From the NCBI GenBank assembly GCA_025453605.1, contig JALOPZ010000002.1, positions 388,631 to 452,630 on the forward strand: a stretch of 64,000 bases of DNA. The letters run 5' to 3'. The first letter of the stretch is position 1, and each line of letters starts with the position of its first letter. Under the pieces are notes generated by a model. It did no database searches and was not told the origin of the DNA. It worked only from the letters and a program-made list of their open reading frames with translations. Origin of the DNA: Candidatus Margulisiibacteriota bacterium (GTDB lineage: Bacteria; Margulisbacteria; WOR-1; O2-12-FULL-45-9; XYB2-FULL-48-7). The position numbers and the translations under genes were made by a program. Below, piece by piece: positions 8,176 through 27,323 of this stretch.

Positions 8176-8432
8176 TTTTTGCCGGTCAGTTTTTCGACGA
8201 ACTCAGCCAGGGTGCCGACCGTTTTGAAGACCTGATCCGGCTTTTTTAGATTGCGGTTGTTGATCTTGACCTTGAACTCGCGCTCGATCGCCACGATGAT
8301 CTCGAGCGAATCGACCGAATCAAGACCGAGCCCTTTCCGGAAGAGCGGCTCGCTGTCTGGGATCCTGGCTGGATCACGGTCCAGGTTCAACTGCTCGACC
8401 AGCATTTTTTTCAAGCGTTCTTTTACCGTCAT
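8172..8432 (-). CDS. Acyl carrier protein
   Basis: 86 aa with the LGLDSVDSLEI phosphopantetheine site. Confidence 0.93.
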   Translation of the reverse strand: MTVKERLKKMLVEQLNLDRDPARIPDSEPLFRKGLGLDSVDSLEIIVAIEREFKVKINNRNLKKPDQVFKTVGTLAEFVEKLTGKK

Positions 8433-8450
8433 TAAAGCACCTCCGTGAGA

Positions 8451-9182
8451 TCAGGCGGTCAAACCGCCGTCAACGACCATGGTCTGGCCCTGGACATAGG
8501 ACGAATCGGCCGAAGCGAGAAAAACAACCGCGCGGGCGACCTCGGCCGGCTTTCCGGCCTTACCCAGCGGGATCATTTTCAGATATTTACTTTTCAATGA
8601 GTCGGTCAGTTCCGATTCGATCAGTCCGGGCGCGACCGAGTTGACCCGAATGTTATAACGCGAAACTTCTTGCACCAGCGAGCGGGTCAACCCCGCGATC
8701 CCCGCTTTGGCCGCCGCGTAGTTCGCCTGGCCCTCCACGCCGCGGAGCGCGGAGACAGAGGAGACGTTGACGATCGCGCCGCTCTTGCGGGCGATCATCG
8801 GCTTAAGGACCGCCTGGCAGCAGTTAAAGATCCCTTTCAAATTGACGTTCAAGACCTCATCCCATTCCGCTTCAGACATCAGCATTAAGAGTTTGTCGCG
8901 GACAATGCCGGCATTATTGACCAGAATGTCGATCCGGCCGAAGCGGCGGAGGACCTCGGCCACTGCTTTTTCGACCGCAGCCGACTTTTCAACTTGAATG
9001 GCTAACGGAAAGGCGCGTCCACCGGCTGCCTTGATCTGCTTGACTGTTCGGAGCGCGGCCGCTTTATTGCGCCCGTAACCAACAACTACCAACGCCCCTC
9101 CCCTGGCCAATTCAAGGGCGATGGCCCCACCCAGTGCGCCGGAACCGCCAGTCACCACTGCCACCTGATTTTCCAGCTTCAT
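8451..9182 (-). CDS. fabG: 3-oxoacyl-ACP reductase (FabG-like SDR)
   Basis: VTGGSGALG, DILVNNAGI, NYAAAKAG (YxxxK), NSVAPG. Confidence 0.9.
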   Translation of the reverse strand: MKLENQVAVVTGGSGALGGAIALELARGGALVVVGYGRNKAAALRTVKQIKAAGGRAFPLAIQVEKSAAVEKAVAEVLRRFGRIDILVNNAGIVRDKLLMLMSEAEWDEVLNVNLKGIFNCCQAVLKPMIARKSGAIVNVSSVSALRGVEGQANYAAAKAGIAGLTRSLVQEVSRYNIRVNSVAPGLIESELTDSLKSKYLKMIPLGKAGKPAEVARAVVFLASADSSYVQGQTMVVDGGLTA

Positions 9183-10098: not shown

Positions 10099-11721
10099 TT
10101 AAACCGCTTCGCGGACCAGGCGCAATTCCTGGCCGGGATTACCCAAATTGGACTCGGCGCAGAGCCGGGCGATCACGTCAGTCAGCAGCTTCTGCTTGCC
10201 GGTCAGGAACGCGACCGGCCCCCGGGCCTCGATCGCCGCCTTGACCACGGCCAGCTCTTCCTGGGCTTCCTGCAGCATCTTGGCGTTCGCCTTGTCGCGG
10301 AGCGAATCGAGCTCGGTCTGCGACAGAGCGACGCCGAGCTTTTCCAGATTCCGCAGGACCGTCTTGATCTTCTTTTCCGTGATCGACCAGGCGCTGCCGG
10401 ACAGCTTAGCATAGGTCGCCCGCTCTTCAAAGCCCTCGCGCAGCATTTCCATCAGTCGATAACGGGCCAACCCTTTCCCCTCCGTCTCGATCTGTTCTGT
10501 ATTGCTGACGCCGAGCTTGATCAGCCCGTTCTTGAGCTTGATCATCTTGAACTGGGTTTCCAGGATTGTCCGGGAGTCGCCGTTGACCGCGCGGCGCAGA
10601 TAGAGGGCGCGGAGCTTATCGGTCAGGATATCTTTTTCCTCGTCGGCCGTGTACTGGTACTGCCGCGGCCGTTCGTCGGCACTTCCCCCCTGCCCGCCGG
10701 CCGCCGCCTGGGCCCCCTGGTTATGGGCGATAACCGGCAGCAAGCCCTGGTCGAGACTGATGTCGGGGAGGCGCTGCATAAAGCCCTGGATGTCGAAACC
10801 GATCTTCTCGCCGAGCTTGAGGACCTGGTCGATCTCCTTGACGATCTTGTTTTCCGGCTGTTCGCCGACAGTCTTGCTGGTCAACCCCTCGGTCAGTTTT
10901 TCCGCCACAAAATCCTTGAGCTCCTGGGACTGGTCGCCTGTTTGGCGGTCGACCGCCCCTTTCAGGTCGCCCTCCCGGCCGCCGAAATCGTAACCGCCAA
11001 GCTTGTCGTTAAAGAAAGCAAAATCGATATACCCCTGGACCTCTTTCTTGCTGAGCAGCTCTTCGACCGATTTGCCGGGGGCGCAGAGCTGCTTGATGTA
11101 GCTCTGCTTGACCTGGCGCATGATCTCGGAGCGGACCGAATTGGCGGCGTTGAGCTTGACGCTCTGCAGTTCCTTGGGCGAAAAGCCTTTATCCTTGAGG
11201 AGCGAGGTTTCCAGCTGCTCCAGCTTTTTCTTCGCTTCGCCGCCGCCGGAGACTAAAAATTGCGAATAGGCGCCAAGATATTCCTTGACCGCCGCCCGGC
11301 TCGCCGGCCGCTGGTCAGCCTGCTGGCCGTCGGAACCGCCCTGCTGGCCGGGATCCTGCTTGGCCTTCTGGTTCTTACCGACATAATAGTCGGCCGACTT
11401 GATCTCTACCCGGTCACGGCCGCCCTCTTCCTTGTTCTCCAGGGCAAAGCCGAAATCCTCTTTCAGGCTCTGCATGATCTTGTTCGCCGGCATCTGCTGG
11501 GCCAGGCGGGCGGCGATCTGCGCCAGGATATGTTCCCCGGCTTTGCCTCCCCCTTTCTCCAGCGCTTTTTGCAGAGCGCTTTCGCTCAGAACGTTGCTCT
11601 GTTCCTGGTTCTGATCAACTTTTTTGTCGAGCGTGTTCTGGAGCAGCGTGTCCAGGCTCTGAGCCTGCGCCAGATTGGCGGCGACCGCTAACTGTTGATT
11701 ATTGGCTTGTTCGATCCCCAT
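10099..11721 (-). CDS. Hypothetical all-helical protein with three internal modules
   Basis: 540-aa ORF tightly packed with neighbours; modules end GFSPKEL, GVSNTEQ, GVALSQTEL; Gln-rich N-terminus. Confidence 0.85.
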   Translation of the reverse strand: MGIEQANNQQLAVAANLAQAQSLDTLLQNTLDKKVDQNQEQSNVLSESALQKALEKGGGKAGEHILAQIAARLAQQMPANKIMQSLKEDFGFALENKEEGGRDRVEIKSADYYVGKNQKAKQDPGQQGGSDGQQADQRPASRAAVKEYLGAYSQFLVSGGGEAKKKLEQLETSLLKDKGFSPKELQSVKLNAANSVRSEIMRQVKQSYIKQLCAPGKSVEELLSKKEVQGYIDFAFFNDKLGGYDFGGREGDLKGAVDRQTGDQSQELKDFVAEKLTEGLTSKTVGEQPENKIVKEIDQVLKLGEKIGFDIQGFMQRLPDISLDQGLLPVIAHNQGAQAAAGGQGGSADERPRQYQYTADEEKDILTDKLRALYLRRAVNGDSRTILETQFKMIKLKNGLIKLGVSNTEQIETEGKGLARYRLMEMLREGFEERATYAKLSGSAWSITEKKIKTVLRNLEKLGVALSQTELDSLRDKANAKMLQEAQEELAVVKAAIEARGPVAFLTGKQKLLTDVIARLCAESNLGNPGQELRLVREAV

Positions 11722-11723
11722 GT

Positions 11724-12767
11724 TCAGTTCCCCGCCCCGAACGGATAGATGGCGCGCGCCAGCGCCAGGTTCGCTTCGGCTTTCTCGCGTTCGCCTTTCT
11801 GCTTATAGGCCTGCCCGAGCAGGTAGTGCGGCAGCGCCTGATAGAGATACGGGTTCTCGACCGGGCTGTCCCACTTCTTGCCAGTGACCTCGGTCATGAT
11901 CTCGATCACCTGATCGGCCTTCCCCTGCATCAGGAACATGGTCGCAAAGACATCCTTGGCCGGAATATTTTCTTTATCAGCGGTATAAAGCTCCATTGCC
12001 GCCCGGCCGGCCGCCTGATATTCACCGAGCTGCAACAGATTGATCGCGATCTTCTCCTTAGCTTGCAAGACCAGGTCGGCAGCGGCTCCGAGCGTAACCA
12101 CCTGGCGGTAATGCTCGATCGCCTCCGCCTTGCGGCCGACCTCGGCCAGCGTGTTGGCCAGAAGAAAATGATAATACGGATCGGTCGGATTGGCGGCGCA
12201 GGCGGTGCCGTAGAGCTCCAGATAGCGTTCCCGTTTGGCCGCCATCTGCTCCGCCTCGCGCTGCTTACCCCAGTGATAAAGGGTGATCGGCAGCGCCGGG
12301 CCGCTGACGACCTTACCAGCCGCGTCGACCAGCTGCTCATTGATCGGCCTAACAAAGTGAATACCGAGGCCGTTCCGGAAAGCCTTGACCCGCTGGTAGC
12401 GGAACCCGTTCTGCGTCGTGCCGTAAGGGGCTTCGCACATCGTGATCTCGTAAGCCTCGGCCTTCCCGTTCTCAATGGCCGTACGCAGCTTCTTCAGTTC
12501 TGCGGTCTCCAGATACTCATCGGCGTCGATCCAGATGATCCAGTCGCCGGTCGCGTGCTTGAGCGATTCGTTGCGGGCGGCGGCAAAATCCTTGATCCAG
12601 GGGAAGTGATAGACCCTGGCGCCGTACTTTTCGGCAACCGCCACGGTCTGATCGGTCGAGCCGGTGTCGACCAGGATGAGCTCGTCGACCCCCTGGGCCA
12701 GCGCCGGAAGGACCAGCTGCAGAACAGCCGCTTCGTTCTTGACGATCATGCAGGCGGAGATTTTCAT
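11724..12767 (-). CDS. GT2 glycosyltransferase with C-terminal TPR repeats
   Basis: ISACMIVKNEA, VDTGSTDQT, WIKDFAAARNESL, IDADE, then TPR-like helices (PTDPYYHFLLANTL, HYLLGQAY). Confidence 0.92.
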   Translation of the reverse strand: MKISACMIVKNEAAVLQLVLPALAQGVDELILVDTGSTDQTVAVAEKYGARVYHFPWIKDFAAARNESLKHATGDWIIWIDADEYLETAELKKLRTAIENGKAEAYEITMCEAPYGTTQNGFRYQRVKAFRNGLGIHFVRPINEQLVDAAGKVVSGPALPITLYHWGKQREAEQMAAKRERYLELYGTACAANPTDPYYHFLLANTLAEVGRKAEAIEHYRQVVTLGAAADLVLQAKEKIAINLLQLGEYQAAGRAAMELYTADKENIPAKDVFATMFLMQGKADQVIEIMTEVTGKKWDSPVENPYLYQALPHYLLGQAYKQKGEREKAEANLALARAIYPFGAGN

Positions 12768-13153
12768 CAGACCGCCACCTTGACCCGGGTCGGGTTAAGC
12801 TGTTGAGCGGCACGGCGGACCAATTTGGTATCGCCCTGTTCTTTTTCGAGCGTCTTGGTCAGCTGGGCCGCGTGCTGGGCCCGCAGGGCCTGCGCTTTGC
12901 GGATGTAGGAGTTGAGCCGTTCCAGCTTGATCAGGATCTCTTTTTTGTTGGTGCCGAAGATGCTCATCTCGTATTCAAGGTTCGATTTTTCCATGTAGAA
13001 ATCGCCGGTGATCCGGTCGATCGCTTCCAGCTTCATCTCCGAGAGCACGGCCGGCCGGTAATCGTGGCTGATGCCGAGCCGCTCCGCCTGGACCAGGAGC
13101 TGGTTCTTCAGTTCGGTAATGACTTTTTTCTGCGCTCTTTTTTTCTTGCTCAT
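12767..13153 (-). CDS. Hypothetical basic coiled-coil protein (128 aa)
   Basis: Start reassigned to ATG 13153 (MSKKKRAQKK), which overlaps the upstream stop as ATGA. Confidence 0.8.
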   Translation of the reverse strand: MSKKKRAQKKVITELKNQLLVQAERLGISHDYRPAVLSEMKLEAIDRITGDFYMEKSNLEYEMSIFGTNKKEILIKLERLNSYIRKAQALRAQHAAQLTKTLEKEQGDTKLVRRAAQQLNPTRVKVAV

Positions 13154-13680
13154 GCCAGTATCTCGTGCATCGTTTCGTCGTAAATGGTCTGCCGCATCGC
13201 CGTGTGGTTCTGGTCGATCTGGTCGGCGCGGACCTGGGAGCGGAGGTCGGAGAGCTCTTCGGCGCTGACACCGAAGTGAGCAAGCTGGTCCATGACGTTG
13301 CCGACGAGCCATTCGGAGACGCGGGCCAAAAGCCGGTTGTGCGAAAACATGTTGCCGTAGGCGCCGACGTAGGCTTTCTTGAAGCGGTTGACCAGCTCTT
13401 CGCGCATGGTGGCCGGTTTGGCGCTGTCGAGCTTCCCGCCGACAGTGGTGGTAGCTGACGCGAGCAGTGAGGTAGAATCGTCAAGCCCGGGGACGACCGC
13501 CTTAAAATCGGCGCCGCTATTATCCTCGACCCATTTCAGCTGCGATTCCCTAGTCGCGGCAGCGGATTTGTCGGTCAGCGACTGCTGTTCTTGCGGCTTT
13601 TGCTGGCCAAGCGCCAACTTCGCCTGGAGGGCGTACTCTTTGGCTCCCGAAAATCCGCTGGTAAGTGCTAGTTCGCTCAT
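13150..13680 (-). CDS. Hypothetical protein with one copy of the module found in 10099..11721
   Basis: 176 aa; KAYVGAY...GVSAEELSDLR; directly downstream of a sigma-28-like motif. Confidence 0.85.
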   Translation of the reverse strand: MSELALTSGFSGAKEYALQAKLALGQQKPQEQQSLTDKSAAATRESQLKWVEDNSGADFKAVVPGLDDSTSLLASATTTVGGKLDSAKPATMREELVNRFKKAYVGAYGNMFSHNRLLARVSEWLVGNVMDQLAHFGVSAEELSDLRSQVRADQIDQNHTAMRQTIYDETMHEILA

Positions 13681-13754: not shown

Positions 13755-16031
13755 TCAGGCTTTTTTCGGCTTCTTTTCGGGAGCTTTCTGCAACTGGCGG
13801 CTCCGTTCGGCCCGTTCCGCGTTGCTCCGTTTATCGGCCGCCTTAGCGGTCGCTTCCCGTTCCTGCTGCCGTTTCTCAGCCGTTTTCTGGTCGGCGCGGC
13901 GGCTGGCCGCCTTTCTGGCTTCGTTGGCCGCCTCCACTTTTTTGTTAGCGGCGATCTCGTTGCCCTTTTCGGTAAAATCTTCCTTATCCTGATTATATTC
14001 GCGCTCGTTAGCTTTGCGCACATGCGCCCGCTCCCCGGCCAGGCGGAGCCCCATCCCGTTGCCGCTCTTGTAGAGCTGGCCGAGCAGGTGGACGACCCAG
14101 TTCTTGGTGTAGGCCGTGCCGGAGGTCGCGGTCGTCGAGTTCAGGCCAACAAACTGCATCCCGGAGTAAGCCGGGTGGTAATAATCCTCGTTCTGCTTGG
14201 TGTTCATCGTCACCCCATAGAGCGAGCTGACGATCGAACGCCAGTAAACCGTTTCGTCATTCGGGGATAACCTGGTCGCGCCTCCACCCGATCCGTTATT
14301 GGCGATCAGGATAACACTATCGGCAAATTTTCGGTCGTAACCGTAAGCGGCTGTCCGCTGCTCCGCGGCATACTTGTGAACGTTATAAACATATGCGCCG
14401 TTCACCGGGGTCCATTTAATATCTTCAGTAAAATCGGCCCCGCCCGGCCCGCCAAATTCGCCATAGCCGATCGCGACCCATTTCCCCTCTTTATCCTGGA
14501 CATAATCGTTGGTCCCGATCGTCACCGGAATCCCGCTGACCGCCAACCCGATCCCGAGGTCGCCGCCATAATTTACCTGGTTCGCCTCGCGAGCATAATA
14601 ATTTCCGAACCAGCTCTTGATAAAGGCATTAGCCTTGTCGTAGAGCTTCTTGCGGTTCAGAAAATCCTGCTTTTCCGCGTCGCTTAGCTCATCGACGTCC
14701 GTGTTGTCATATTGCTCCTGGGTCAGGCCGGAATAAGTGTACCGCCAGGTAAAAAGGTTCTGGCTGGCCAGGTCGGAATCCTGATCGACCGATGGGGTAT
14801 GATCGTTCATCCGATAATTTTCGTAGTCGCCCAGATAGTCGTTGAACTGGCGGGCCCCCATCGCCTGGGAAAAATCCCAGAACCGCATATTATCCAGCTG
14901 GGAGAGACTTAAACCAGCATTTTTGTTCCCTTCCCAGTACGCAGTCATGTGATTGGTGACGGTATGCTGGAGCTGAAAATAATTGGTAAAAAGGGAGATC
15001 TCATGGTAGTTATAATACGGCTTGTGCGCCCGAACAAAGGCATCGATATGCGTCATCATCTGTTTGTCATTACGCGTCTGATCGACCGGGCCAAAGACCT
15101 GTCGCTCCATGAACCAGATCCGGCGTGACGATTCCTTCATTGCCAGGGTGAGCATCATCTTACCGGTGGCGTCGAGGCCATTATAAGCCCCGCTCATGAC
15201 GATGTCGTAAAAGCTTTTGTTGCCAAAAGTGCTGTTCAACCAACTGGTCAACCGGGTAAAGCTCCAGCTCTCACCGGTCCAATCGCTAAGCAGCCCTAAT
15301 CCCTCGTCCCCATTGATAAAGTAGGCCTGATTGGCATCAGCCGCCCCTACCGCGTCCGGTGTCCCCGGCCGTTTGGCCCGGCTTAGGTGGTTCCACTCGC
15401 CGGCAGCGACCCGGAAATCGAGATTTTTGTACGATAACCCCATGTTCTTACCGGCCGAGACATTGGCCTGCTCATTGCTGCCGGGGCCGAACGAACCGGA
15501 TTTGTGCCGCTGGCCGGAGACCCAGTTATTGCGCCAATCGTTCAGGCCGCTACTGCCGGGATGCGACGCCTCCCAGGCTTTGAGTGAGACTTCGTTATCG
15601 ACCACGCCATTTTTGGCTAATCGTTTCATTTCTTCGTAATACCGGTACATCTTTTGGTCGTCCGCGTTGCTGCTCCCGGCCTTGCTCTTCCAATCGTCGG
15701 TGAACTGGCGCCATTCACTACCGTCGTTTTCATCGATCGTAAAGCCCCATTCGTTGAACTCTTTCAGCCAGTCATCCGTGACTCTGGTCGTTTCTTTGCC
15801 GTTCTGCAGCGCGACTCCCTCGCCTTCGTCGGCAAACGCGGTCCCTTCACAGTACATCTGCTCAAAGCCGGGGAGCCACTTCATCATCTCCTGGCCAAAA
15901 TTGGCCAGCCGGGCTAAGCCGGCATCTTTGGTGAGAAAGTTCTGCAGGTCGCGGGTCCGGGGCATAAGCTTGCGGCGCGGCGGCCGCAGCTGATATTCGT
16001 CCGTAGCGAGGAGGTTATTCCACGACGTCAT
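13755..16031 (-). CDS. Hypothetical Trp/Tyr/Asn/Asp-rich protein with a charged C-terminal coiled-coil tail
   Basis: 758-aa ORF; AGGGAG RBS; no signal peptide; no family recognised. Confidence 0.85.
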   Translation of the reverse strand: MTSWNNLLATDEYQLRPPRRKLMPRTRDLQNFLTKDAGLARLANFGQEMMKWLPGFEQMYCEGTAFADEGEGVALQNGKETTRVTDDWLKEFNEWGFTIDENDGSEWRQFTDDWKSKAGSSNADDQKMYRYYEEMKRLAKNGVVDNEVSLKAWEASHPGSSGLNDWRNNWVSGQRHKSGSFGPGSNEQANVSAGKNMGLSYKNLDFRVAAGEWNHLSRAKRPGTPDAVGAADANQAYFINGDEGLGLLSDWTGESWSFTRLTSWLNSTFGNKSFYDIVMSGAYNGLDATGKMMLTLAMKESSRRIWFMERQVFGPVDQTRNDKQMMTHIDAFVRAHKPYYNYHEISLFTNYFQLQHTVTNHMTAYWEGNKNAGLSLSQLDNMRFWDFSQAMGARQFNDYLGDYENYRMNDHTPSVDQDSDLASQNLFTWRYTYSGLTQEQYDNTDVDELSDAEKQDFLNRKKLYDKANAFIKSWFGNYYAREANQVNYGGDLGIGLAVSGIPVTIGTNDYVQDKEGKWVAIGYGEFGGPGGADFTEDIKWTPVNGAYVYNVHKYAAEQRTAAYGYDRKFADSVILIANNGSGGGATRLSPNDETVYWRSIVSSLYGVTMNTKQNEDYYHPAYSGMQFVGLNSTTATSGTAYTKNWVVHLLGQLYKSGNGMGLRLAGERAHVRKANEREYNQDKEDFTEKGNEIAANKKVEAANEARKAASRRADQKTAEKRQQEREATAKAADKRSNAERAERSRQLQKAPEKKPKKA

Positions 16032-16049: not shown

Positions 16050-16376
16050 TTACCCGCCAAACAGGGAGAAGAGCTTATTGGAGAGATCGAGATCGTTCTT
16101 CTTGATAGCGAGGAGGCGATCGATCACGGAGAGCGTATCGGAGTTCCACTTGTCGGCCAGATAGGTGGCGGCCGCCGAGTCTTTTCTCACGATGTGGCCC
16201 TGGATCTCGACCGTTTCGGTCGTGTCGTCCGACATCGCTTCAACATAGGTCTTCATGTCCTGGTTGAACTTCTGCCAGAAATCGACGATCTTATCGGTAA
16301 CGCTGCTGGCGTCCTTTTCGTAGGAAGCCCCCTGTAGCTGGGATAATATTGCGTAACCGCTCTGAATTTCACTCAT
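16050..16376 (-). CDS. Small helical-hairpin protein, paralog of 16464..16799
   Basis: 108 aa; AAGGAG RBS; aligns without gaps at both ends with the upstream 111-aa protein. Confidence 0.85.
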   Translation of the reverse strand: MSEIQSGYAILSQLQGASYEKDASSVTDKIVDFWQKFNQDMKTYVEAMSDDTTETVEIQGHIVRKDSAAATYLADKWNSDTLSVIDRLLAIKKNDLDLSNKLFSLFGG

Positions 16377-16463: not shown

Positions 16464-16799
16464 TTACAGCTTCTGGGACAGCTTCGCATTGATCTGCTTG
16501 TCGAGGTTCGAGGCAGAGGCCAAGCCGCTCGCCTGGTTCTGCTGCCGCATGCTAAATTGTTCATTGACGTACAGGAAAGCCGAACCGTCAACCTTGACCG
16601 CTTTCCCGGCGCTGGTGACCACGCAACCGGCCGCATTCGCTTCGGCAGTCGTGTGACCTTTTCCCGCGTTGTAATCCGAAGCCTGGATGTCAGCACCAGA
16701 GTTCGCGTCAACGCCTTCGAAAGCATTGATGACCTGGTTTTGCCACGCATCGGTCTTTTGGTCCATCTTTATAAAAGAATCTGTCATATCTACGCTCAT
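16464..16799 (-). CDS. Small helical-hairpin protein, candidate major polymer subunit
   Basis: 111 aa with its own promoter, structured 5' UTR, AAGGGGGTGA RBS and 3' hairpin. Confidence 0.85.
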   Translation of the reverse strand: MSVDMTDSFIKMDQKTDAWQNQVINAFEGVDANSGADIQASDYNAGKGHTTAEANAAGCVVTSAGKAVKVDGSAFLYVNEQFSMRQQNQASGLASASNLDKQINAKLSQKL

Positions 16800-17216: not shown

Positions 17217-17415
17217 CACTAATTCTCACTAATTTGTCCGCTCGCGAATAACGCTAATGGGATTTTCACTAATTAGGCGAAGCACTCTAATTGACGCTTA
17301 TATCGCGAATATTGAGTAACATTAAATAATTAGCGTAGATTAGTGATGATTAGCGTCTTTAGCAAAATCCCATTAGCGATATTAGAGATCCTGGGTAATT
17401 AGTGATAATTAGCGT
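17217..17415. repeat. AT-rich palindromic element made of short repeated units
   Basis: Left half repeats C[A/G/T]CTAAT(T); right half repeats (A)ATTAG[T/C/A]G; perfect 15-bp inverted repeat CGCTAATGGGATTTT (17252-17266) / AAAATCCCATTAGCG (17364-17378). Confidence 0.85.
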
Positions 17416-17720
17416 TTTGAGGGGTGGCCCAGGTCATTTAGGAGCTGGCGGATCCGGTCTATCGACGATTCCAGGGCTTTTTCTTCTTCTTCGCTGAAGC
17501 TGAAAAGCTTTTCCAGCTTCTCTTCTTTCTGCTTGTTGAGGTTCAGCAGAGCGGCCGAATTACCGTCGGCAATTTGCAGGTTGGCCGACTTGGCCAGCTG
17601 GCTCAGGTTCGCCGCAAAGCTCGGGCCGTTCTGGGCCTGGCTCGACGAACTCTGCTTATTGGCCGGCTTGATCGCCGCCGCGTCGTTGATAATATTCGGA
17701 TTCACGTTCCCGATGTTCAT
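17409..17720 (-). CDS. Hypothetical small protein
   Basis: 103 aa; ATGA overlap with the giant ORF; Asn/Ser-rich disordered N-terminus then PSFAANL and a helical C-terminus. Confidence 0.82.
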   Translation of the reverse strand: MNIGNVNPNIINDAAAIKPANKQSSSSQAQNGPSFAANLSQLAKSANLQIADGNSAALLNLNKQKEEKLEKLFSFSEEEEKALESSIDRIRQLLNDLGHPSKR

Positions 17721-20700
17721 GCTGAATAGTTCCTTCCGACCCCGGCCAGAACAGCTTCTTCCTGCTGGGCCGCCAGATACCGGTCGTAGGCCGACGCCGG
17801 CTTGGCGAACCGGGGCTGCTTGGTTTCTTTCTTGACGCTGGCCTCGGTCCGGGCCGCGGCAACCTCGATCTTCTTCGCCGGCTTCTCTTCCTTGACCGGG
17901 AGCTCGCCGACACTTGCCAGGATCATCCCGGCCCGCTCAACCTCAAGATTATACAACCGCGGCGGCTGAGGCGCCAGCGGGACAACCGGGACCGGCTGCG
18001 GTTGGACCGCTGCCGTTTTGACCGGCCGGGCCGCCGCCAGCTTCTTCAAGATCTCTTCGACCGTCGCCTTATCAACCCCCTTGAGCAGAGCGAGACAGGT
18101 ATTCTCGTCCTTATTTCTCAGGTTGAGATCGGCGATCAGCTGATCGGCTTTGGAGACATAGATATCCTGCTCTTCTTCGACCCGGTGGGCATTGGCTGCC
18201 TTGGCGTCGGCCGCCTTTTGCGCGGTTGCTTCGTCGATCTTCCGGCCGGCATCCAGAGCCGCCTGTCCGGCCGCCACGATCTGCTCCCCTGCCTGCTGCG
18301 CGGCCGGTGTCGCAACGCTGGCCAGAGTCGTTGTCTGGGTCGTCGATCCGCTGCCGCTTTCGACCGCTTCACCCAGGTTCTTGAGCATGGTCTGCAGGGC
18401 GGCGATCTCTCTGTTCAGCTCCTTGATCTCGCCGCGGTTCCCTTTGATCTCCCCCATCAGTTCGTCGATCTTCCCTTTGGCCGCCTCGGTCCCGGCCAGG
18501 GCCGCTTTATGAGCTAGCTTGGCGTTCCGATATGAATCATTAATAGCTATTTTGATATTCTCTTTCTTCGTCAGGTCTGCCTGCTTAGTTTTCCGCTCTG
18601 CCGCTGTCAGCTTACCGCTCTCCAACTCCTGCCGGAGCGCGGCGATCTCCTTCTTATTCTGAACATACTGTTGCTCCAGGCTGGTCAGGTTATTGGCTGT
18701 TTTGACGACCGTCAGCGCGGCTGTCCCCTTGGCTGTCGCCAGCTCGTTGCGCTGGGCGACCAGAGCGGTGATCTCCGCCTGTTTCTGGGCGATCTCCGCC
18801 TGTTTCTGGGCGATCAGCGTCTTGATCTCCGTTTTGGTCAGCTGCTCGGGGTTACCGGCTGCCGCCTGGTTCGGAGCGGTTTTGAACTGGCCTTTGAGGC
18901 CGGATACTTCCTGTTCCAGCTTGACCTGAGCCGCTTTCCCCGATTCGATCTTGGCGTCAAAAGATTTGGTCAGGGCGTCAAGCGAATCGGCCAGGACTTT
19001 CTGGGAGCGGGCCGCCTGTTCCTGCCGCTGGAACTGGTGGGTCACGACCTGCTGGGCCGCCGCCGGATTGCCGGCCGCCGCCGCACCCGCTTCACCGGCC
19101 CGGGTCTGATCGGACGCAGTTGCCTTCTCCAGTTCGTTAACGGTCGCGATATCCGGGTTAAGGAAACTCTGGATAGTATAAACGGAGCTCTCCGGCATCA
19201 TCTTAAAGAACGAAAGGGCGGCATCGGCCTGCATTGATTTAAAACCGAGAACGTCCATCCCCTCTTCGCTCTGCGCCATCATATACTGGTGGGTCTCGAT
19301 GTCAGACTCCATACTATCGAGCGCGCCGGCAAAACCGGCCCCCTCTTCTTCACGCTCTTCAGTCGCGCAGGCGTTATTCTCTTCCTTCTTCTCTTTCCCG
19401 TCCGTTTTCTTCCCGCTCAGATCATTATGGACCGTATTCGATTTTTCATCATCGCCGGTGAAGCAGAGCGGGATCAGAGCGTTCAAGGAGCGGCCGACCA
19501 GATTGATGGTTGAGGAGAGTTTACCAACATTGCGCATGCTCCGGATCAGTTCACCCTTCTGGGAATTCAGCTTTTCTTTATCGACGTTCGATTGCGCCGG
19601 ATAGCTCTCCGCGATCTGCTTATCGATCTGCGCGATCTCTTTCTTCGTCCCGGCCCTGGCGATCGAGCACGAGAGCGAGATGGTCGAGACCGCGGCGCCA
19701 ACGAACGCCTGGGTCATCTGAACATATGCTTCGCGCTTCTGGTTCTCGCGCTGAACGATCGACTCCAGCGTCCCCTTGAGCGCCTCCAGGATCGAGAGGG
19801 CCGCCGAGCGGTTCGCTTCGACGATATCGGTCAGACTGGTGGAGGCCTGGAACTTGCCCATCGCCGCCTTGATCTCGCGCATGATCTGCATCGCCATGGC
19901 GATCGCCAGCTTGGCGTTGTATAAGCGCTCCATCCGGGTGTTGACCAACGCGGTATCGCCGCTGACGGACGAAAGACCGTAGTCGAGCGAGTTGATCAGA
20001 TCGGTCGACATCTGGCGCATGATCTCGTCTTCGCGCGCGTCCAGCTCGTCGGTCCAGTCGCCGGTTTTTTCGCTCTTCTTTTTGCCGTTCATTTCGTCGA
20101 CCGTGTCGTTGACATTGTAGTTCTTGAGCGCGCCGATATCGGCATTGGTCGTGTTGTTCGCTTCGATCACGCTGTACATGTTGGCGGCCAGGTTGCCGAG
20201 GGCCGGCAGGACCTCAGCCAACGCCATCCCGAACGAGCCGGCGGAGGTGGTCGCCATCAGGGACATGCTGGCGGCCGAGCAGGCGATATTGATCCCGCCG
20301 GTAATGCCGGCGTTGATCAGCTGTTTCTCGGCGTCACGCCCCTGGTTCATTACCGCCGCGGTCGTCCGCAGGTCGGCCGCCAGGTTGCTGACGATCCGGA
20401 GAGCGGCCGAGAAGCTGGCCTGATTGACCGATTTGGTCAGCTCCTCGGCGGCGGTCCCCGGCGCGACGCCGGTCAGCTCGCGCTGGACCGCGGCCCGGAC
20501 CTTGGCGCCGAGCGTCAAGGCATCGGAGAGGACCTGCTTCAGGGTGAAGATCCGCTGGATCTGCTTGATCGTTTTGGCGAGCTGGCTGTTGTTAAGCCCG
20601 TGGTAGCCGTCGCCGGTCCCGATCAGACCATTGGCCAGGAAGTCGAGCATCGCCTGCGCTTCCATCCGATCCAGTTTCCCCTCGATCGAATCGTCGTTGG

Positions 20701-23677
20701 CCGCCCGATTCGCCAGAAAAGCGTCCATCTCTTTGTCATTGGACCGATAGCTGATATTGCGCGATTCGTTGCTGGCGGCCAGACCGATCGAAACAGCCGA
20801 GCCGGCGATCGCCGCGCCGAGGTTAATGAACGCCCCGGCGACCGAACCGGCCGGTAAGAGCGAGACGATAAAACCGGCGATCGCGCCGACGCTCTGCCCC
20901 GCCGCGCCAGCGTTCATTTTGCCAAGGGCGATCTGCTTCTGGGTCTCCATGTTCCGGGCGGTGATGTACTGCGACAGCTGGAAGGTGATCGCCGAGGCGA
21001 CCGCCTGCCGCTGAGCAAGGAGCGCTTCGACGCTCTTCATCGTCAACCCTTCGATCGTCGATTCGCCCAGGCTCCCGCCGAAGGTCGCCTTGACCAGCCG
21101 GTTAATATCCTGCTTCTGTTTGGCGAGATAAAAAAGGACGCGGATCGCGTTGTTAAGGGCGTTCAGCTTCCGCTCGAAATTGGCGATCGCCTTGGAATCG
21201 AGGTGGTACATCCCGTCCTTGGTTTTGACCAGAAAAGCGTCGCCTTTGGCGAGGGCGCTCTCCATCTGGGCGATCTCGGCGTCAATGCTGTTAAAGACGT
21301 CGACGACCGTCTCGCCGGTGGAAGCGGTATCCGCTACCACATCAGAAGGAGTCGGCGCGCTGACATTGGGGGTGTCGATATCGCTCAAGATCTGGGAAGC
21401 GGCCAAAGCGGCGGTAGCGCCGAGCGCCGCACAAGCCGCGCCGACCGCGGTCAGCGCCGGCACCCAGGCTGGTGTCGAGGAACCGAGAGAGGCGACCGTG
21501 CAGATCGCGGCGATCACGACCGACGCGATCATCAGAACAATAGCGGCCGCCTGCATCGCCTTGGCCTGCTCCAGCCGGTCAAAGGTGTCGATGTTGAGGA
21601 GGAGCTGGTTGAAAACCGCCGCCCGCATCATCAGCTGCGAGAGGGCGGCGTCGACGATCTGGGTGGTCGGGCCGGTCATCAAGTCGGCCCCGGCGGCGAC
21701 CAGTTCGGCGTTGGTGGCAAAACCGCTCAGGCCGGTCAGCTCGCGGTAAACAGTGTTGCGGATCTCGCTCTTGAGCACGGCCAGGGCGGCGGCCATCCGG
21801 TAAGCGTTCTGTGCTTTGACGACGTTCCCCCGAACGACCTTAACCAGCTGGTCGATGTGCAGGTCCTGGATCGCGTCGCTGTTGTAGAAACCCGGTTCCG
21901 CCCATTTCACCGCTTTACCGTTGCTGCTGTAGTAGATCCCGTCGGACGAATCGCCGTCGGGATCGAAATCTTCGATCCCGAAATAATCGCGCTGGCCCGG
22001 ATCTTCTAAACTATCGAGGACCATGCCTCCAGGCACCAAAAGAATGCCGTAACCGCCCAGCTTGTCGTTGACATAATTCCAGGCCCGGGAGATCCCCTCG
22101 TACAGGACAAAGCGGATCCCGTCGACGAGATTATCGAGCACGATGTTGTCGAGGATATCGTCAACGACGACCCGGCCGATCCACTGGATAGCGTCGCCAA
22201 CACCGCCGTGAGTGCCGTAACCGCCATCCGCCCCCCACCCCTCTTTGGACGCCCAGGCCTTCTCCCACCCTTCGCCGCTAGTCCAGTTCTCGTTATCGTA
22301 GGCCCAGCCGAAAAGGGTCCAAATGATGTGGTCGACGAACTCGCCGATATAATTGAGCGCCGTGGCGATCACGTCAAGGATATTGGCTACCAGGGTCAGA
22401 CAAAACTCGACCGGGTTACGGGTCATATTGATCCCCATCTGACCCAGGTTAAGGACCTGGCCGATGATCGCACCACCGACCCCCAGTTCTTCTCCCAGCC
22501 AGTTCTGGCCGGCGCGCAGACACCCCCCCATACCGGACCAGAATTCATCCCAGCCGCCCGACCACATCTTGTCCCAGGCGGCGTCGCAGTCGTCGATCGC
22601 CTCCATCTCCTCGAGCTTCTTGTTGACTTCCTCCATCTTATCGTCGATCTGCTTGCCGAATTCATCCAGCTTGACCGTCAGCGCGCCCAGCCCGGAGGCG
22701 ACCGAAAGGGCCAGCATCCCCATCGCGCTGTTCTCCGGCATCTGCGCCAGCCCGTCGGTCATCTCTTTGATCATCGTCTGGATCAGCTGCTTGAACACTT
22801 CCAGGTTCCGCTTCATCGCTTCCAGGTACTGTTTCTGGTCCTGGCAGATCTTCCGGTTCAGCTTCTGGGCCTCATAACCTTGCGACCACCAGTTCGACCA
22901 CTTAAAGCCGCTGCTGTTCGACTCGTTCTGAGCGTCGGCCAGCTTTTTGTTGTAAACCGCGGTGTTATGGGTGTTGACCTCTTCCAGCATCTTGGCAAAA
23001 CCTTGCTGAGAAGCTTTCAGGATACCGGAGAAAAGCTTGAGGACGCCGGCGCGCATACTGGCCGATTTACCGCCGTTATCCATCTGCTGGCCGGTATAGA
23101 TCTCGTCGATCAGGTTGTTGATATCCCCCTTGAGCGACATGGCGATCGCCAGGCCGAGGAGCATGTTGAGGTAATGCATCATCTTGCGGGTGAACTCTTT
23201 AAGCGCCTCGTCCTTGAGGTAATAATAACCGTCGGCGCCGGCGCTGGTGTCGATCATTTTATCGGGATCAAAACCGCTGAAGAGGCCGTCCAGCCCTGCG
23301 TCAACAGTGCCGAAAGCTTCTTCCGCGCCGTAGTCGCCGGTCTCGGTCGGGGCGCCGGTCTGGCCAGCGCCAGTAGTCGGGCAAGCATCGCCAGGCTGAC
23401 CGACGCCAGGGTTAACCGGCATGGTCGCCAGGCCGTAAGCGGCAGAGTTGACAACGTAGTTGTCGCCTTCCCGCCCGGCGGCGCGAATATGGGGAGCGGG
23501 GGGATTGGTCCCGGCGGTGACGGTTGCCGCGTCGGGGCCGTTCAACTCCGCCCCGGCCGCCAGGATCGGATCGGCGGTCACAAACTGCGGTTGAGCGGCA
23601 GCGGCGGATGAGCCAAGGAGCTCACCATCGCGGGTGATGTTCTTAATATCAGGGGCTTGAATGGTCGGTGCTGTCAT
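17717..23677 (-). CDS. Giant protein with ~5 degenerate coiled-coil+hydrophobic-hairpin repeats and a long C-terminal coiled coil
   Basis: 1986-aa ORF; recurring DG[YM][YH] and RELTG motifs at about 205-aa spacing; no signal peptide. Confidence 0.9.
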   Translation of the reverse strand: MTAPTIQAPDIKNITRDGELLGSSAAAAQPQFVTADPILAAGAELNGPDAATVTAGTNPPAPHIRAAGREGDNYVVNSAAYGLATMPVNPGVGQPGDACPTTGAGQTGAPTETGDYGAEEAFGTVDAGLDGLFSGFDPDKMIDTSAGADGYYYLKDEALKEFTRKMMHYLNMLLGLAIAMSLKGDINNLIDEIYTGQQMDNGGKSASMRAGVLKLFSGILKASQQGFAKMLEEVNTHNTAVYNKKLADAQNESNSSGFKWSNWWSQGYEAQKLNRKICQDQKQYLEAMKRNLEVFKQLIQTMIKEMTDGLAQMPENSAMGMLALSVASGLGALTVKLDEFGKQIDDKMEEVNKKLEEMEAIDDCDAAWDKMWSGGWDEFWSGMGGCLRAGQNWLGEELGVGGAIIGQVLNLGQMGINMTRNPVEFCLTLVANILDVIATALNYIGEFVDHIIWTLFGWAYDNENWTSGEGWEKAWASKEGWGADGGYGTHGGVGDAIQWIGRVVVDDILDNIVLDNLVDGIRFVLYEGISRAWNYVNDKLGGYGILLVPGGMVLDSLEDPGQRDYFGIEDFDPDGDSSDGIYYSSNGKAVKWAEPGFYNSDAIQDLHIDQLVKVVRGNVVKAQNAYRMAAALAVLKSEIRNTVYRELTGLSGFATNAELVAAGADLMTGPTTQIVDAALSQLMMRAAVFNQLLLNIDTFDRLEQAKAMQAAAIVLMIASVVIAAICTVASLGSSTPAWVPALTAVGAACAALGATAALAASQILSDIDTPNVSAPTPSDVVADTASTGETVVDVFNSIDAEIAQMESALAKGDAFLVKTKDGMYHLDSKAIANFERKLNALNNAIRVLFYLAKQKQDINRLVKATFGGSLGESTIEGLTMKSVEALLAQRQAVASAITFQLSQYITARNMETQKQIALGKMNAGAAGQSVGAIAGFIVSLLPAGSVAGAFINLGAAIAGSAVSIGLAASNESRNISYRSNDKEMDAFLANRAANDDSIEGKLDRMEAQAMLDFLANGLIGTGDGYHGLNNSQLAKTIKQIQRIFTLKQVLSDALTLGAKVRAAVQRELTGVAPGTAAEELTKSVNQASFSAALRIVSNLAADLRTTAAVMNQGRDAEKQLINAGITGGINIACSAASMSLMATTSAGSFGMALAEVLPALGNLAANMYSVIEANNTTNADIGALKNYNVNDTVDEMNGKKKSEKTGDWTDELDAREDEIMRQMSTDLINSLDYGLSSVSGDTALVNTRMERLYNAKLAIAMAMQIMREIKAAMGKFQASTSLTDIVEANRSAALSILEALKGTLESIVQRENQKREAYVQMTQAFVGAAVSTISLSCSIARAGTKKEIAQIDKQIAESYPAQSNVDKEKLNSQKGELIRSMRNVGKLSSTINLVGRSLNALIPLCFTGDDEKSNTVHNDLSGKKTDGKEKKEENNACATEEREEEGAGFAGALDSMESDIETHQYMMAQSEEGMDVLGFKSMQADAALSFFKMMPESSVYTIQSFLNPDIATVNELEKATASDQTRAGEAGAAAAGNPAAAQQVVTHQFQRQEQAARSQKVLADSLDALTKSFDAKIESGKAAQVKLEQEVSGLKGQFKTAPNQAAAGNPEQLTKTEIKTLIAQKQAEIAQKQAEITALVAQRNELATAKGTAALTVVKTANNLTSLEQQYVQNKKEIAALRQELESGKLTAAERKTKQADLTKKENIKIAINDSYRNAKLAHKAALAGTEAAKGKIDELMGEIKGNRGEIKELNREIAALQTMLKNLGEAVESGSGSTTQTTTLASVATPAAQQAGEQIVAAGQAALDAGRKIDEATAQKAADAKAANAHRVEEEQDIYVSKADQLIADLNLRNKDENTCLALLKGVDKATVEEILKKLAAARPVKTAAVQPQPVPVVPLAPQPPRLYNLEVERAGMILASVGELPVKEEKPAKKIEVAAARTEASVKKETKQPRFAKPASAYDRYLAAQQEEAVLAGVGRNYSA

Positions 23678-23686
23678 TACAAATAT

Positions 23687-23715
23687 ATATCGGTCCGAAG
23701 GGGGAAAAACTTGCG
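23687..23715 (-). promoter_or_regulatory. Sigma-28-like promoter copy 4
   Basis: CGCAAGTTTT-N11-ACCGATAT, 9 nt before ATG 23677. Confidence 0.8.
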
Positions 23716-23731
23716 TAATTTGGGGACTTTT

Positions 23732-24964
23732 TTAGCTGGCGGATGGGACAGCAACCTGCCCCTTATTTTGCCTAATACCGTCTAAAATCTGACCGATCCG
23801 GCCGACATCCGTTTGACCTAATTGTTTAAGTGTTACCCTGATCTGCCAAAAAGCCTTGCTGTAGCCTGGCTCTTTGACATCGACCCGGGCGAGTTTCGCC
23901 TCAATTTCCGGGTTTTTAAGCTCCCGAAGCTTGCCGAGCGCCTTATCGTTCCACTCTGATTCTTCGATCGCCTTGCGCTCCGGCAGCTTACCCTCGATCA
24001 TGTACTGCCTGAGAATGGTCGCCGCGAACCGGTCGCGGGAGAGAGCGTCTGTCAACTCCATATCCAGCCCGTCGCGGGACATTTCGCCCTGAAGCTGCAA
24101 AGCCAGTTTGTAAAAGACCATCAGCGCCTGCTGTTGTTCGTGCTTTGAACCGTTGAGCAGCTCAGCCAGTTGGCTGGCCACGTCGTCGGCCCGGTATTCG
24201 CCGTCCTGAGGCGGGAAGTAAGCCTCCATCAGCGCCCGATGCCGCGAGGTCATCAGCTTGAGTTCTTCATGATTGTTTTCCGTCAATCCTCTGGCCACCG
24301 CCAGCAGGTTTTTGGCGCCGATCAATGTCCGGATCCGGGAGGCGGACAAAAAAGTCCGCGCGTCCTGACCGGTCCCACGCAAATAGGTTTTCCCCTGGCG
24401 CAAATTCTCGACCAGTTCACCGGTTGAGACTTTGTCCTTATCACCCATCAGACTGTGCCACTGCTGTTCGCCCACTTTCTGGCCGATCATCTCGGCAAAA
24501 TCCTCTCTGGTGATCCCCCCGCGCAGCTCCGCGGCGGTAAGGACCCTCATAAATTTATCCCGCGGCAGGCTGGCGACGTCGCCGCTCAGAAAATAGACAG
24601 TTTCAAAATAAGCATCCACCCCATCGTTAGCCGGCCGTCCGTTGGGTACAGCGGTCTGGCGCCCCCCCGCGACAGCCACCTTCCCACCCCCGGCCGCTGG
24701 GGCATCCCCTTTGATCTCCGTATCGGCCAGCAACCCGTCATCCCCGGCCACCGCTTTCCACTCCTTTTCGGAGAGAGAGATCTTGACCGTGTCGGAGCAA
24801 TAATCCTGCAGCTCCTTCAGGCTGATCTGTTTATCGCCATCCTGATCGAGCAGCTTGATCTCCCCATCGGCCCCCTGTTTGCTCGAGGAGGCGCTAAGCT
24901 TATTCTTACCGACATATGACGCCACCTGCCGGGCGCTCAATAAGACTTTACCGGTTTCGTTCAT
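23732..24964 (-). CDS. EF-hand-containing hypothetical protein
   Basis: 410 aa; canonical loop DQDGDKQISLKE (24812-24847) plus degenerate loops (AGDDGLLADTE, MGDKDKVSTGE). Confidence 0.8.
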   Translation of the reverse strand: MNETGKVLLSARQVASYVGKNKLSASSSKQGADGEIKLLDQDGDKQISLKELQDYCSDTVKISLSEKEWKAVAGDDGLLADTEIKGDAPAAGGGKVAVAGGRQTAVPNGRPANDGVDAYFETVYFLSGDVASLPRDKFMRVLTAAELRGGITREDFAEMIGQKVGEQQWHSLMGDKDKVSTGELVENLRQGKTYLRGTGQDARTFLSASRIRTLIGAKNLLAVARGLTENNHEELKLMTSRHRALMEAYFPPQDGEYRADDVASQLAELLNGSKHEQQQALMVFYKLALQLQGEMSRDGLDMELTDALSRDRFAATILRQYMIEGKLPERKAIEESEWNDKALGKLRELKNPEIEAKLARVDVKEPGYSKAFWQIRVTLKQLGQTDVGRIGQILDGIRQNKGQVAVPSAS

Positions 24965-25191
24965 TTTTTATCCCTCTGCTCGCGCAGCGCCGTCTTCAGG
25001 TCGGTCAGCTGGGAGCGCATCTTCTGCTGGACCTGCTCCAGATGCGCCTGGGCCGCTTTGGTCCGCCGCCGGGCAGCCGCCAGGGCGACATAGCCGGTCA
25101 GCACCCGCCCGATCGCCGAAACGATCAGCAAGAACGAGAGCGCCAGCGAAAAGCTGACCAGATTAAAGTTTTGCGCCAAATAATCGAACAT
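24961..25191 (-). CDS. Small membrane protein (TM helix + coiled coil)
   Basis: 76 aa; AAGGGGAG RBS; LVSFSLALSFLLIVSAIG hydrophobic stretch; ATGA overlap with the next gene. Confidence 0.8.
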   Translation of the reverse strand: MFDYLAQNFNLVSFSLALSFLLIVSAIGRVLTGYVALAAARRRTKAAQAHLEQVQQKMRSQLTDLKTALREQRDKK

Positions 25192-25720: not shown

Positions 25721-26440
25721 TCACGGTTTTTTTACGGCCTCAACCAGGGGGGCAAAAAAGGCGCGGATCCGGTCAACTGTCCCAGCCTCCCCGGGGTCCC
25801 AGCTCTTCCCCAGGACCAGGTCAACCTCGCCCAGGAGAAAGATATCCCGGTTAGGCTTGTTCCCCTCGCCGACCGTCCTGATCGTCAGCGGACGGACGGT
25901 CGCCCCGGCTTTAGCCGCCAGACTAAGCAATTTCTCCAGTTTTTCGCGGGAATGACGGCTTTCTCCGTAGAAGATCTCATAGTAAATAACGACCGGTTTT
26001 TCGGACTGCAGCCGCTGATAGATCGCCCCGGCAAATAGCCAGGCAGCCGGCCGGTCATCATCCCGACGCGGATAGGGGATATAACCGAGGGTCCGCAAGA
26101 CCCGGCCGACGATCCAGAGCTTGAGGAGCGAATCGGCTACCACCATCGGGAGCTCGGACGAGAGGGCGGCTACCAGGTAGAGAGGAGCGTTGCGGCACGG
26201 TCGGTTGACCAGCAGAATGGTCCGGCCGGCGGCCAGCACCGCCTGACCGGGGGCGACGATCCGGACCCCGCCCAACCGGAGAAAAAAGGCGACGATCACC
26301 CGGGCGATCTGACGGTATAACACTTTTCCCGCCGGGCCCCATGGGGCGATCAGCCAGGAAAACAGGTAAAAGAAAAGAAAGAGCAGCCTAATCCCGAGCC
26401 AGTAATAAAGGTTGGCGATCAGGCGCCGCAGCCATCTCAT
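25721..26440 (-). CDS. Degenerate PlsC-like acyltransferase-fold membrane protein
   Basis: N-terminal TM segment and PlsC-like layout; motif I reads NRPCRNAP (no His or Asp); similar to 26643..27323 (PLYLVAA, GRVL). Confidence 0.65.
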   Translation of the reverse strand: MRWLRRLIANLYYWLGIRLLFLFFYLFSWLIAPWGPAGKVLYRQIARVIVAFFLRLGGVRIVAPGQAVLAAGRTILLVNRPCRNAPLYLVAALSSELPMVVADSLLKLWIVGRVLRTLGYIPYPRRDDDRPAAWLFAGAIYQRLQSEKPVVIYYEIFYGESRHSREKLEKLLSLAAKAGATVRPLTIRTVGEGNKPNRDIFLLGEVDLVLGKSWDPGEAGTVDRIRAFFAPLVEAVKKP

Positions 26441-26646
26441 GGCTTGTTATCGTCGTCAACCTGGCTGAAAAAATCGATCTTATAAACCTCGGCCGTTTTC
26501 TGTTCCAGGGCGCTCTTTTCTTTTTCCAGCCGGTCGATGGTCTCACGCAGGCTCGCGGCGCTGGCCGCGGCGGCGACCGTATTCCGCACGACCAAACTGA
26601 TCAGCACGATCAGGACCACCAGCACGATCAGCCAGATGATCATCAT
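26437..26646 (-). CDS. Small membrane protein (TM helix + coiled coil)
   Basis: 69 aa; GGAGGAGG RBS; overlaps both neighbours. Confidence 0.75.
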   Translation of the reverse strand: MMIIWLIVLVVLIVLISLVVRNTVAAAASAASLRETIDRLEKEKSALEQKTAEVYKIDFFSQVDDDNKP

Positions 26647-27323
26647 TTCCCCTCCTCCAACACCCGAAATAAATTCGCCAAAGTGCTCTTTTCGGCTGGA
26701 CCGGCGGGCCGCCAGGGGGAACCGATCTTAAGCCGGACCCGGCCGGGGTTGATCAAATACTCCGACGTGACCGGCGGCTGCTCGATCAGGAGCGGGATGA
26801 TCGCCGCTCCGCACAGGCGCGCGGTCCTGACCAGCGCGTCGTCAAGTTCGGCCGGTTTGCTGACCAGCCGCCGCAAGGCGGGCGGAAAGACCAACACCTG
26901 CTCTCCCCGCTGCAGCGCCTCCCGCAGGGATAAGAGAAAGGCGACGTCGGTCCCACCCAATTCGTAGATCAGGCAACCGGCGCTTTTTAAAACCCGGCCG
27001 AGGAGCGGAACCCGTAAAATATTGGAATCGGCGACCAGGCGCAAACGCTCCGGCCGGGCGGCGACCAGGTAAAGCGGTTCCAGTAAACCGGGATGCTCGG
27101 CTACCCAAAGAGAGCCGCCGCGCATTTTTCCCTGCGGCGCGCCGACCACTTCTACCCTGATAAAAGTGCAAGCCAGCAGAAGCTTCATCATTTGTCGGAA
27201 TATAGCGTAATACAGCGGACGAGCCAGGTCGCCCAGCGGCAACAGCAGCCAGGCCAGAACAGCCAGGATCAGCAAACCGATCAGGCAGAGGAGAAAGAAA
27301 TACGCCGAGAAAAGCCATGCCAT
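26643..27323 (-). CDS. PlsC-like acyltransferase (variant HX4E)
   Basis: SLWVAEHPGLLEP, VPLLGRVL, LQRGEQVLVFP, AAIIPL. Confidence 0.75.
   Translation of the reverse strand: MAWLFSAYFFLLCLIGLLILAVLAWLLLPLGDLARPLYYAIFRQMMKLLLACTFIRVEVVGAPQGKMRGGSLWVAEHPGLLEPLYLVAARPERLRLVADSNILRVPLLGRVLKSAGCLIYELGGTDVAFLLSLREALQRGEQVLVFPPALRRLVSKPAELDDALVRTARLCGAAIIPLLIEQPPVTSEYLINPGRVRLKIGSPWRPAGPAEKSTLANLFRVLEEGK

Follow-up and report, generated by a model that had tools for sequence, protein, structure and literature searches.

A conserved five-unit repeat protein of Margulisbacteria, predicted tip/translocon of a filament-less flagellar export machine

A protein of five homologous units

We analysed a stretch of 64,000 nucleotides from a Candidatus Margulisiibacteriota bacterium (assembly GCA_025453605.1, contig JALOPZ010000002.1, positions 388,631 to 452,630; the window), a member of an uncultured phylum next to the Cyanobacteria. 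At 17717..23677, on the minus strand, it holds an open reading frame (ORF) uninterrupted by stops that encodes a protein of 1986 amino acids, P0001, with five internal repeats, helical and ancient. The repeat family is real, undescribed and of phylum level, and it stands in a credible secretion context. A prediction made from the letters alone (the original prediction) had seen degenerate repeats in this protein and proposed that one chain could supply several pore protomers.

BLASTP self-comparison found no internal repeat in P0001. By profile comparison, based on a unit alignment of 24 rows (P0001, two database homologues and 21 ORFs from 20 related loci), all ten pairs of the five units matched each other (hhalign 92.6-99.5%, E 4.6e-7 to 3e-23), as against less than 0.6% in 18 of 18 control comparisons, in which the Trp-rich insert or either of two tail segments took part. 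The motifs described as repeat openings lie at 23236 (ADGYYYL), 21220 (KDGMYHL), 20614 (GDGYHGL) and 19984 (DYGLSSV), and the additional unit suspected near 21850 was borne out, with a start at ~21900-21850. The conserved Asn that had been noticed occupies an equal register in every unit (N238, N690, N909, N1111, N1312). The proposed period of about 205 amino acids holds for units 3-5, but the step from unit 2 to unit 3 is 229 (start-to-start spacings 448, 229, 204 and 204 amino acids). A mutual-information analysis of 105 proteins was swamped by the invariant Asn columns and was set aside.

The N-terminal 139 amino acids (23261..23677, minus strand as all parts of the gene) are polar, of low complexity and, as predicted, rich in Ala, Gly, Thr and Pro. 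A hydrophobic signal peptide was found in none of the 24 aligned N-termini (hydropathy peak >1.6), and the region is a candidate type III signal region. Unit 1 (residues 140-345; 22643..23260) is a two-helix core that lacks the hydrophobic hairpin. It is followed by the Trp-rich insert of the original prediction (residues 346-585; 21923..22642), which is rich in Trp, Gly and Asp, holds 13 of the 19 Trp residues and is lineage-restricted, being covered by 6 of the 24 alignment rows. Then come unit 2 (590-800; 21278..21910), the sole SctE-like unit, with the strongest hairpin at residues 707-765, unit 3 (812-1012; 20642..21244) with its hairpin at 921-970, unit 4 (1014-1222; 20012..20638) with a weaker one at 1119-1154, and unit 5 (1224-1420; 19418..20008) with a long helical hairpin of borderline hydrophobicity. 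The charged helical tail (17720..19417), in P0001 rich in Ala, Glu, Lys, Leu and Gln, varies from about 300 to over 3000 amino acids among homologues.

The expectation of an Ala/Gly-rich hydrophobic hairpin in most units was right for units 2 and 3, less so for unit 4, and failed for unit 1, unit 5 being borderline. Uncharged runs in P0001 span 59, 50 and 36 amino acids in units 2, 3 and 4, and the share of homologues with a 19-residue hydropathy peak above 1.6 is 24/121 for unit 1, 93/96 for unit 2, 82/111 for unit 3, 89/135 for unit 4 and 61/127 for unit 5. The hydrophobicity of units 2-3 lies within the range of nine SseC-family proteins. AlphaFold, given unit 3 alone (66 rows), returned a model (pLDDT 78.9, pTM 0.54) in which a beta-hairpin leads into helices of 40 and 67 residues, followed by a return helix and a pair of short ones; given units 2-5 jointly (55 rows), it returned the same pattern four times over (pLDDT 79.1, pTM 0.75). 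Each of the five homologous units is a beta-hairpin with a 40-residue and a 70-residue helix, the hydrophobic hairpin being placed where the long helix ends, and the joint model suggests that units 2-5 come together in a single defined bundle. With the hairpin missing from unit 1, the membrane hairpins that a chain could contribute number three or four rather than five.

A search with the unit profile gave 195 cluster representatives at E<=0.001. The survey of homologues covers the best 150 of these, one of which, P0146 (eel obscurin), is a false positive and was rejected. Named homologues come from Ca. Margulisbacteria, candidate division WOR-1 and Ca. Termititenax persephonae, and one carries an unchecked source label, Omnitrophota. 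Unlike the initial search, which placed six stretches in a few rows, a rescan of 152 proteins found none with more than five units: 57 had five, 60 four, 25 three, 8 two and 1 one. With unit-specific profiles, all five units were present in 96 of the 139 proteins with at least three units, and the units were in order in 120 of these 139. Homologues extend from ~1,200 to 5,152 amino acids by virtue of variable ends. Six of the 12 very long ones (P0109, P0113, P0120, P0140, P0141 and P0148; 3.6-4.9 thousand amino acids) carry a transglutaminase-like domain N-terminal to the repeats, possibly a fused enzyme cargo. The repeat profile, built for the genome survey from class members, matched 56 of 65 genomes of the class and 94 of 146 genomes of the phylum; two well-assembled genomes from one family are among the unmatched ones. 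Several paralogues are seen in some genomes of the phylum (8-10 unit matches in G135, G140, G141 and G143), and at one locus (L034, G052:C1) the repeat gene and its upstream neighbours are tandemly duplicated, the promoter motif described below being absent from the second copy.

Likeness to translocators, tip proteins and toxins

Pfam gave no family match for P0001. Among 66 unit sequences, five matched SseC (PF04888) at E<=1, the best with E 1.9e-6 and 28.2 bits, and the three matches that were located are all unit 2. Against a profile of nine SseC-family sequences, unit 2 reached 72-73% in hhalign over 27-37 columns at the junction of coiled coil and first transmembrane segment (TM1); the reversed control reached 1% and the other units less than 4%. 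The layout of SctE/SctB translocators, a coiled coil followed by a hydrophobic hairpin, which the original prediction had invoked, is clear in units 2-3 and weak in unit 4, but the likeness to SctE in sequence is found in unit 2 only. Toxin families gave weak matches as well: HblD at E 1e-4 (3/66), MakA at E 0.003 (2/66) and AhlB at E 0.08. No FliD, IpaD or LcrV family is among the 25 Pfam families listed for the unit sequences, and a tblastn search of plasmids with the unit closest to SseC gave no match.

Nothing was found with Foldseek at E<=0.001 for the models of unit 3 and of units 2-5, and VIA-align of both models returned generic helical hairpins only, with best Z scores of 11.2 and 7.9, which are under the stated threshold for helical proteins. 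No translocator, tip or toxin chain is among the matches listed; the original prediction had called for such a comparison of single-repeat models. In the ESM Atlas the best value was 0.86 (unnamed), and the RTX and IpaB-N clusters, at 0.76, are at chance level. Altogether, the protein is built like a translocator, and its membership of the family is putative.

With the SctE/SctB translocators (YopB/YopD, IpaB/IpaC, SipB/SipC, SseC/SseD; PF04888) it shares the coiled coil followed by a hydrophobic hairpin of 40-plus residues, the lack of a signal peptide, a type III export gate in the genome, and the resemblance of unit 2 to the junction of coiled coil and TM1. It differs from them in its sub-cut-off Pfam score, in that no class II chaperone was found, and in a machine that is flagellar-type with L/P rings. 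It also differs in having five units in a single chain; according to the available part of PMC6140923, the translocon consists of SctB and SctE, separate proteins with one or two TM segments each, and one copy of SctE in the tip is mentioned there. The comparison with tip and cap proteins is of another kind. Tip/cap complexes (SctA: LcrV/IpaD/SipD; FliD) are pentameric, and five long helical hairpins would fit a five-site filament end; unlike SctA and FliD, P0001 is a single chain with hydrophobic hairpins, and a match to them in sequence or fold is not among the matches listed. The ClyA family (AhlB, HblD, MakA) also combines long helices with an Ala/Gly hydrophobic hairpin and gives the weak profile matches, but here no match is significant, and a tandem fusion encoded by a conserved single-copy gene is unlike these toxins.

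Promoter, gene neighbourhood and export machine

Upstream of the repeat gene lies GCAAG-N16-CCGATA (23688..23714, minus strand), which ends 10 nucleotides before the ATG and which, going by the consensus, we take to be a sigma-28-like promoter. A relaxed form of the motif precedes 20 of 21 homologues, as against 184 of 20,000 random windows (0.9%). The strict form has 15 matches in the genome, where shuffles gave 4.7, and 6 of the 15 lie inside the repeat-protein cluster. Since the usual sigma-28 genes are those for flagellin and cap, the cluster occupies the slot of late substrates. At window positions 23688-23677, 17194-17156 and 28309-28271 the -10 element ends 10-11 nucleotides before the ATG, which implies leaderless or near-leaderless mRNAs. 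Further orphans with polar N-termini lie behind the same motif at C1:323936, 324191 and 732932 and at C2:173209 (C1 and C2 being contigs) and are candidates for further substrates.

The neighbouring genes given here by coordinates are likewise on the minus strand. The stop codon of the repeat gene is overlapped by a conserved neighbour, a 103-amino-acid orphan (17409..17720). Beyond it lie a helix-insert-helix protein of 111 amino acids (16464..16799), which has a sigma-28-like promoter of its own and for which no significant match was found in PDB or Pfam, and a 108-amino-acid protein of similar layout (16050..16376), for which a PDB profile search gave no credible match. The two match each other by profile (57%, E 1e-4), so that the smaller is possibly a paralogue of the larger, and both could be subunits of a filament or needle. 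Farther along are a conserved 758-amino-acid orphan (13755..16031), two conserved helical orphans of 176 and 128 amino acids with a sigma-28-like promoter ahead (12767..13680), a GT2 glycosyltransferase with TPR repeats (11724..12767) and a conserved helical orphan of 540 amino acids (10099..11721), for which PDB profile search and ESM Atlas gave nothing usable. The 128-amino-acid orphan (12767-13153) has a strongly conserved ER(S/A)NLEYE motif in 16 homologues and is a candidate chaperone. On the upstream side, a 76-amino-acid protein with a single TM segment and a variable 410-amino-acid protein (23732..25191) are conserved in position. The 128-amino-acid orphan is kept in order at 15 of 20 loci and the 540-amino-acid orphan at 14 of 20; in genomes of other classes, homologues of cluster genes lie near the repeat gene in two and none lies nearby in three. 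A partner of the SctB kind was not recognised among the neighbours by Pfam and NCBIfam, among which several orphans remain. ACP, ketosynthase, FabG-like and several acyltransferase genes flank the cluster (window 4209-9182 and 25721-27323), as does what we take, from the look of its sequence, to be a YcaO-like gene; similar flanking genes are found at L027 and L041, and together with the GT2-TPR enzyme they hint at acylation of cluster products.

The source genome, 91% complete, encodes FlhA, FlhB, FliP/Q/R/O, FliM/N, FliF, FliE, FliH and FliJ, an ATPase that by the look of its sequence we take to be FliI, the rod and ring proteins FlgB/C/F/G and FlgA/H/I, a FliK-like protein, a hook-like protein of 271 amino acids and two FliA-like sigma factors. 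FliG is shortened to 153 amino acids. Flagellin/FlgL, MotA/ExbB, FliD, FlgD and FliG_C were not found in it, so that the set expected of a motile flagellum (flagellin, FliD, FlgD, MotA, full FliG) is lacking. Two compact flagellar gene clusters (C1:18905-28154 and C2:178132-188811), each with one FliA-like sigma factor, are without genes for filament, cap, hook-cap and stator. The same holds more widely: FlhA is present in 62 of 65 genomes of the class and flagellin in one (a 253-amino-acid frame at L026, G003:C4:62270-62632, is the sole Flagellin_N match), and phylum-wide FliP is present in 132 of 146 genomes (71 of 72 high-quality ones) and flagellin in 15. A second FliP occurs in 13 of these 15, and canonical FliG is limited to these 13. 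In these thirteen genomes (G122-G134) the phylum-wide system stands beside a complete flagellar system that has flagellins and canonical FliG, which argues that the filament-less system is a separate conserved machine and not a decaying flagellum; the repeat protein was matched in 12 of them. An apparent linkage of the repeat gene to fliP in G122 was rejected, as that fliP is the other, flagellar-type copy. Beyond the class, long divergent proteins containing FliG_C (~480-560 amino acids, some >800) are found in many genomes, often several in one.

By NCBIfam the export gate is flagellar-type (FlhA model 755 bits, SctV 660 bits; FlhB, FliR, FliQ and FliP likewise). Nor does the machine agree with the definition by Abby and Rocha of a non-flagellar type III secretion system (T3SS), as flgB, flgC, fliE, flgH and flgI are present and the two secretin genes lie in unrelated loci instead of a linked SctC. 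In a 27-row LG+C20 tree, five FlhA of the Margulisbacteria type form one clade (100/100), which groups with six SctV apart from 16 flagellar rows (support 96/91); FastTree with 86 rows gave the grouping with 0.98. The stems of both groups are long, and by the AU test a grouping with the second FlhA of G134 is not rejected (p 0.45), so that a duplication within the phylum is compatible with the data. We treat a sister relation between this gate and that of injectisomes as tentative.

Predicted function and its alternatives

We favour the view that the repeat protein is a single-chain pseudo-pentameric tip/translocon and that a non-motile type III machine derived from the flagellum handles it as a late substrate; we give this predicted function a probability of about one half. 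It would be exported late, through the gate, by way of its polar N-terminus. The tip of a short hook or needle, built perhaps from the neighbouring ~110-amino-acid proteins, would offer five sites at which the five helical cores dock. Each chain, by itself or together with others, would put three or four hairpins into a target membrane, thereby anchoring the cell and creating a conduit. The variable tail, and the N-terminal transglutaminase-like domains that some homologues have, would serve as a stalk or as cargo adapted to the host. Another microbe is the likely target.

Several observations weigh against this view. The link between protein and machine is indirect, and the promoter motif also precedes signal-peptide-like genes (window 28309; C1:510171) and is thus not a marker of type III substrates alone. 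The repeat gene (C2:406-412 kb) is apart from the export genes (C1:19-28 kb, C2:178-189 kb). No match was found in 52 of 146 genomes of the phylum, including G039, which is 100% complete, and G051, and since FliP is nearly universal its co-occurrence with the repeat protein (89/94) says little. The likeness to SctE is short, sub-threshold (28.2 bits against a gathering cut-off of 30.2) and confined to unit 2; comparable weak matches to DUF2207_C (13/66), HblD and MakA, together with that to AhlB, indicate that it is partly generic. A class II chaperone of the TPR type was not recognised among the neighbours by Pfam and NCBIfam, several orphans remaining; the sole TPR protein is the glycosyltransferase. 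Docking at five sites, finally, is an argument from symmetry.

The strongest rival, which we consider rather unlikely, has the same export and a FliD/SctA-like pseudo-pentameric tip cap or adhesin without a pore, its hairpins buried or anchoring in a host surface. A unit count fixed at five, the hairpins that are weak in units 4-5 and missing in unit 1, the predicted bundle that forms without a membrane, and the failure to find FliD in the source genome would all suit it. However, the uncharged runs of 40-60 residues in units 2-3 are conserved (93/96 and 82/111), as in SseC-family proteins, and the FliD, IpaD and LcrV families are absent from the 25 families listed.

If the pore is retained and effector translocation given up, the protein would be a pre-concatenated alpha pore-forming toxin of the ClyA/Hbl style, released or contact-dependent, that lyses neighbours or feeds on them. 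Long helices with a hydrophobic hairpin and the weak AhlB, HblD and MakA matches speak for a toxin; yet the gene is single-copy and, across classes, has been conserved vertically within a stable cluster, unlike a patchy toxin, and the ClyA-type fold is absent from the structure matches listed, which makes this a poor candidate. We are similarly sceptical, slightly more so, of a scaffold or channel in the producer's own envelope that is co-regulated by the sigma-28-like factor and is not a type III substrate. It would account for a gene unlinked to the export genes, for the signal-peptide-like genes in the promoter regulon and for the acyltransferase and barrel genes nearby; it sits badly with the lack of signal peptides (0/24), with Ala/Gly-rich hairpins that are marginal in units 4-5, and with terminal regions that vary by thousands of residues and in some homologues contain enzyme domains. 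A tape-measure protein of a phage or injection system, the outcome that the original prediction had named as fatal to it, is extremely improbable: the protein is long, helical and Ala-rich and one tape-measure chain matched at E 2.4, but none of four queries matched a PHROGs family, no phage or tail genes are among 28 neighbouring ORFs scanned, and the units, of 200 amino acids, are fixed in number.

Returning to the tip/translocon, a bolder version, which we offer tentatively and think doubtful, would see a phylum-wide injection machine that keeps rod, short hook and L/P rings, replaces filament and cap by a needle of ~110-amino-acid proteins and a five-unit tip-translocon, and is used on other microbes; its gate would possibly be the nearest living relative of injectisomes and unit 2 a surviving cousin of SctE. 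Export apparatuses of flagellar descent that lack filament and motor and are proposed to secrete proteins have precedents in the basal-body-only flagellar locus of Buchnera and the NF-T3SS of Myxococcales, as described in the available part of PMC3459982. Unlike these, the Margulisbacteria machine is phylum-wide, occurs in 13 genomes together with another, full flagellar system and comes with a conserved candidate for the tip/translocon; unlike the Myxococcales systems as presented there, it also keeps rod, short hook and L/P rings. Abby and Rocha (PMC3459982, in the same part) treat the exaptation of flagella to injectisomes and leave the origin of the translocon unplaced. A literature search, which covered few subscription papers, returned no description of the repeat protein or of a type III system in Margulisbacteria. 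The accessible text on an intracellular Margulisbacterium (PMC6784892, 10.1101/568287) makes no mention of type III or flagellar genes, and in that of PMC6349859 'motil' and 'secretion' do not occur.

Known translocons and tips are made of separate small proteins; a five-unit single chain would fix the stoichiometry genetically and would offer an easier way to a structure that is difficult to determine. The few Margulisbacteria that have been observed live on spirochetes, to which the Termititenax group is reportedly attached, or within animal cells. The repeat protein would give a purpose to a flagellar machine that is kept across the phylum without filament and motor and, if the grouping of FlhA with SctV is true, this machine bears directly on the rise of injectisomes from flagella and on the source of their translocon.

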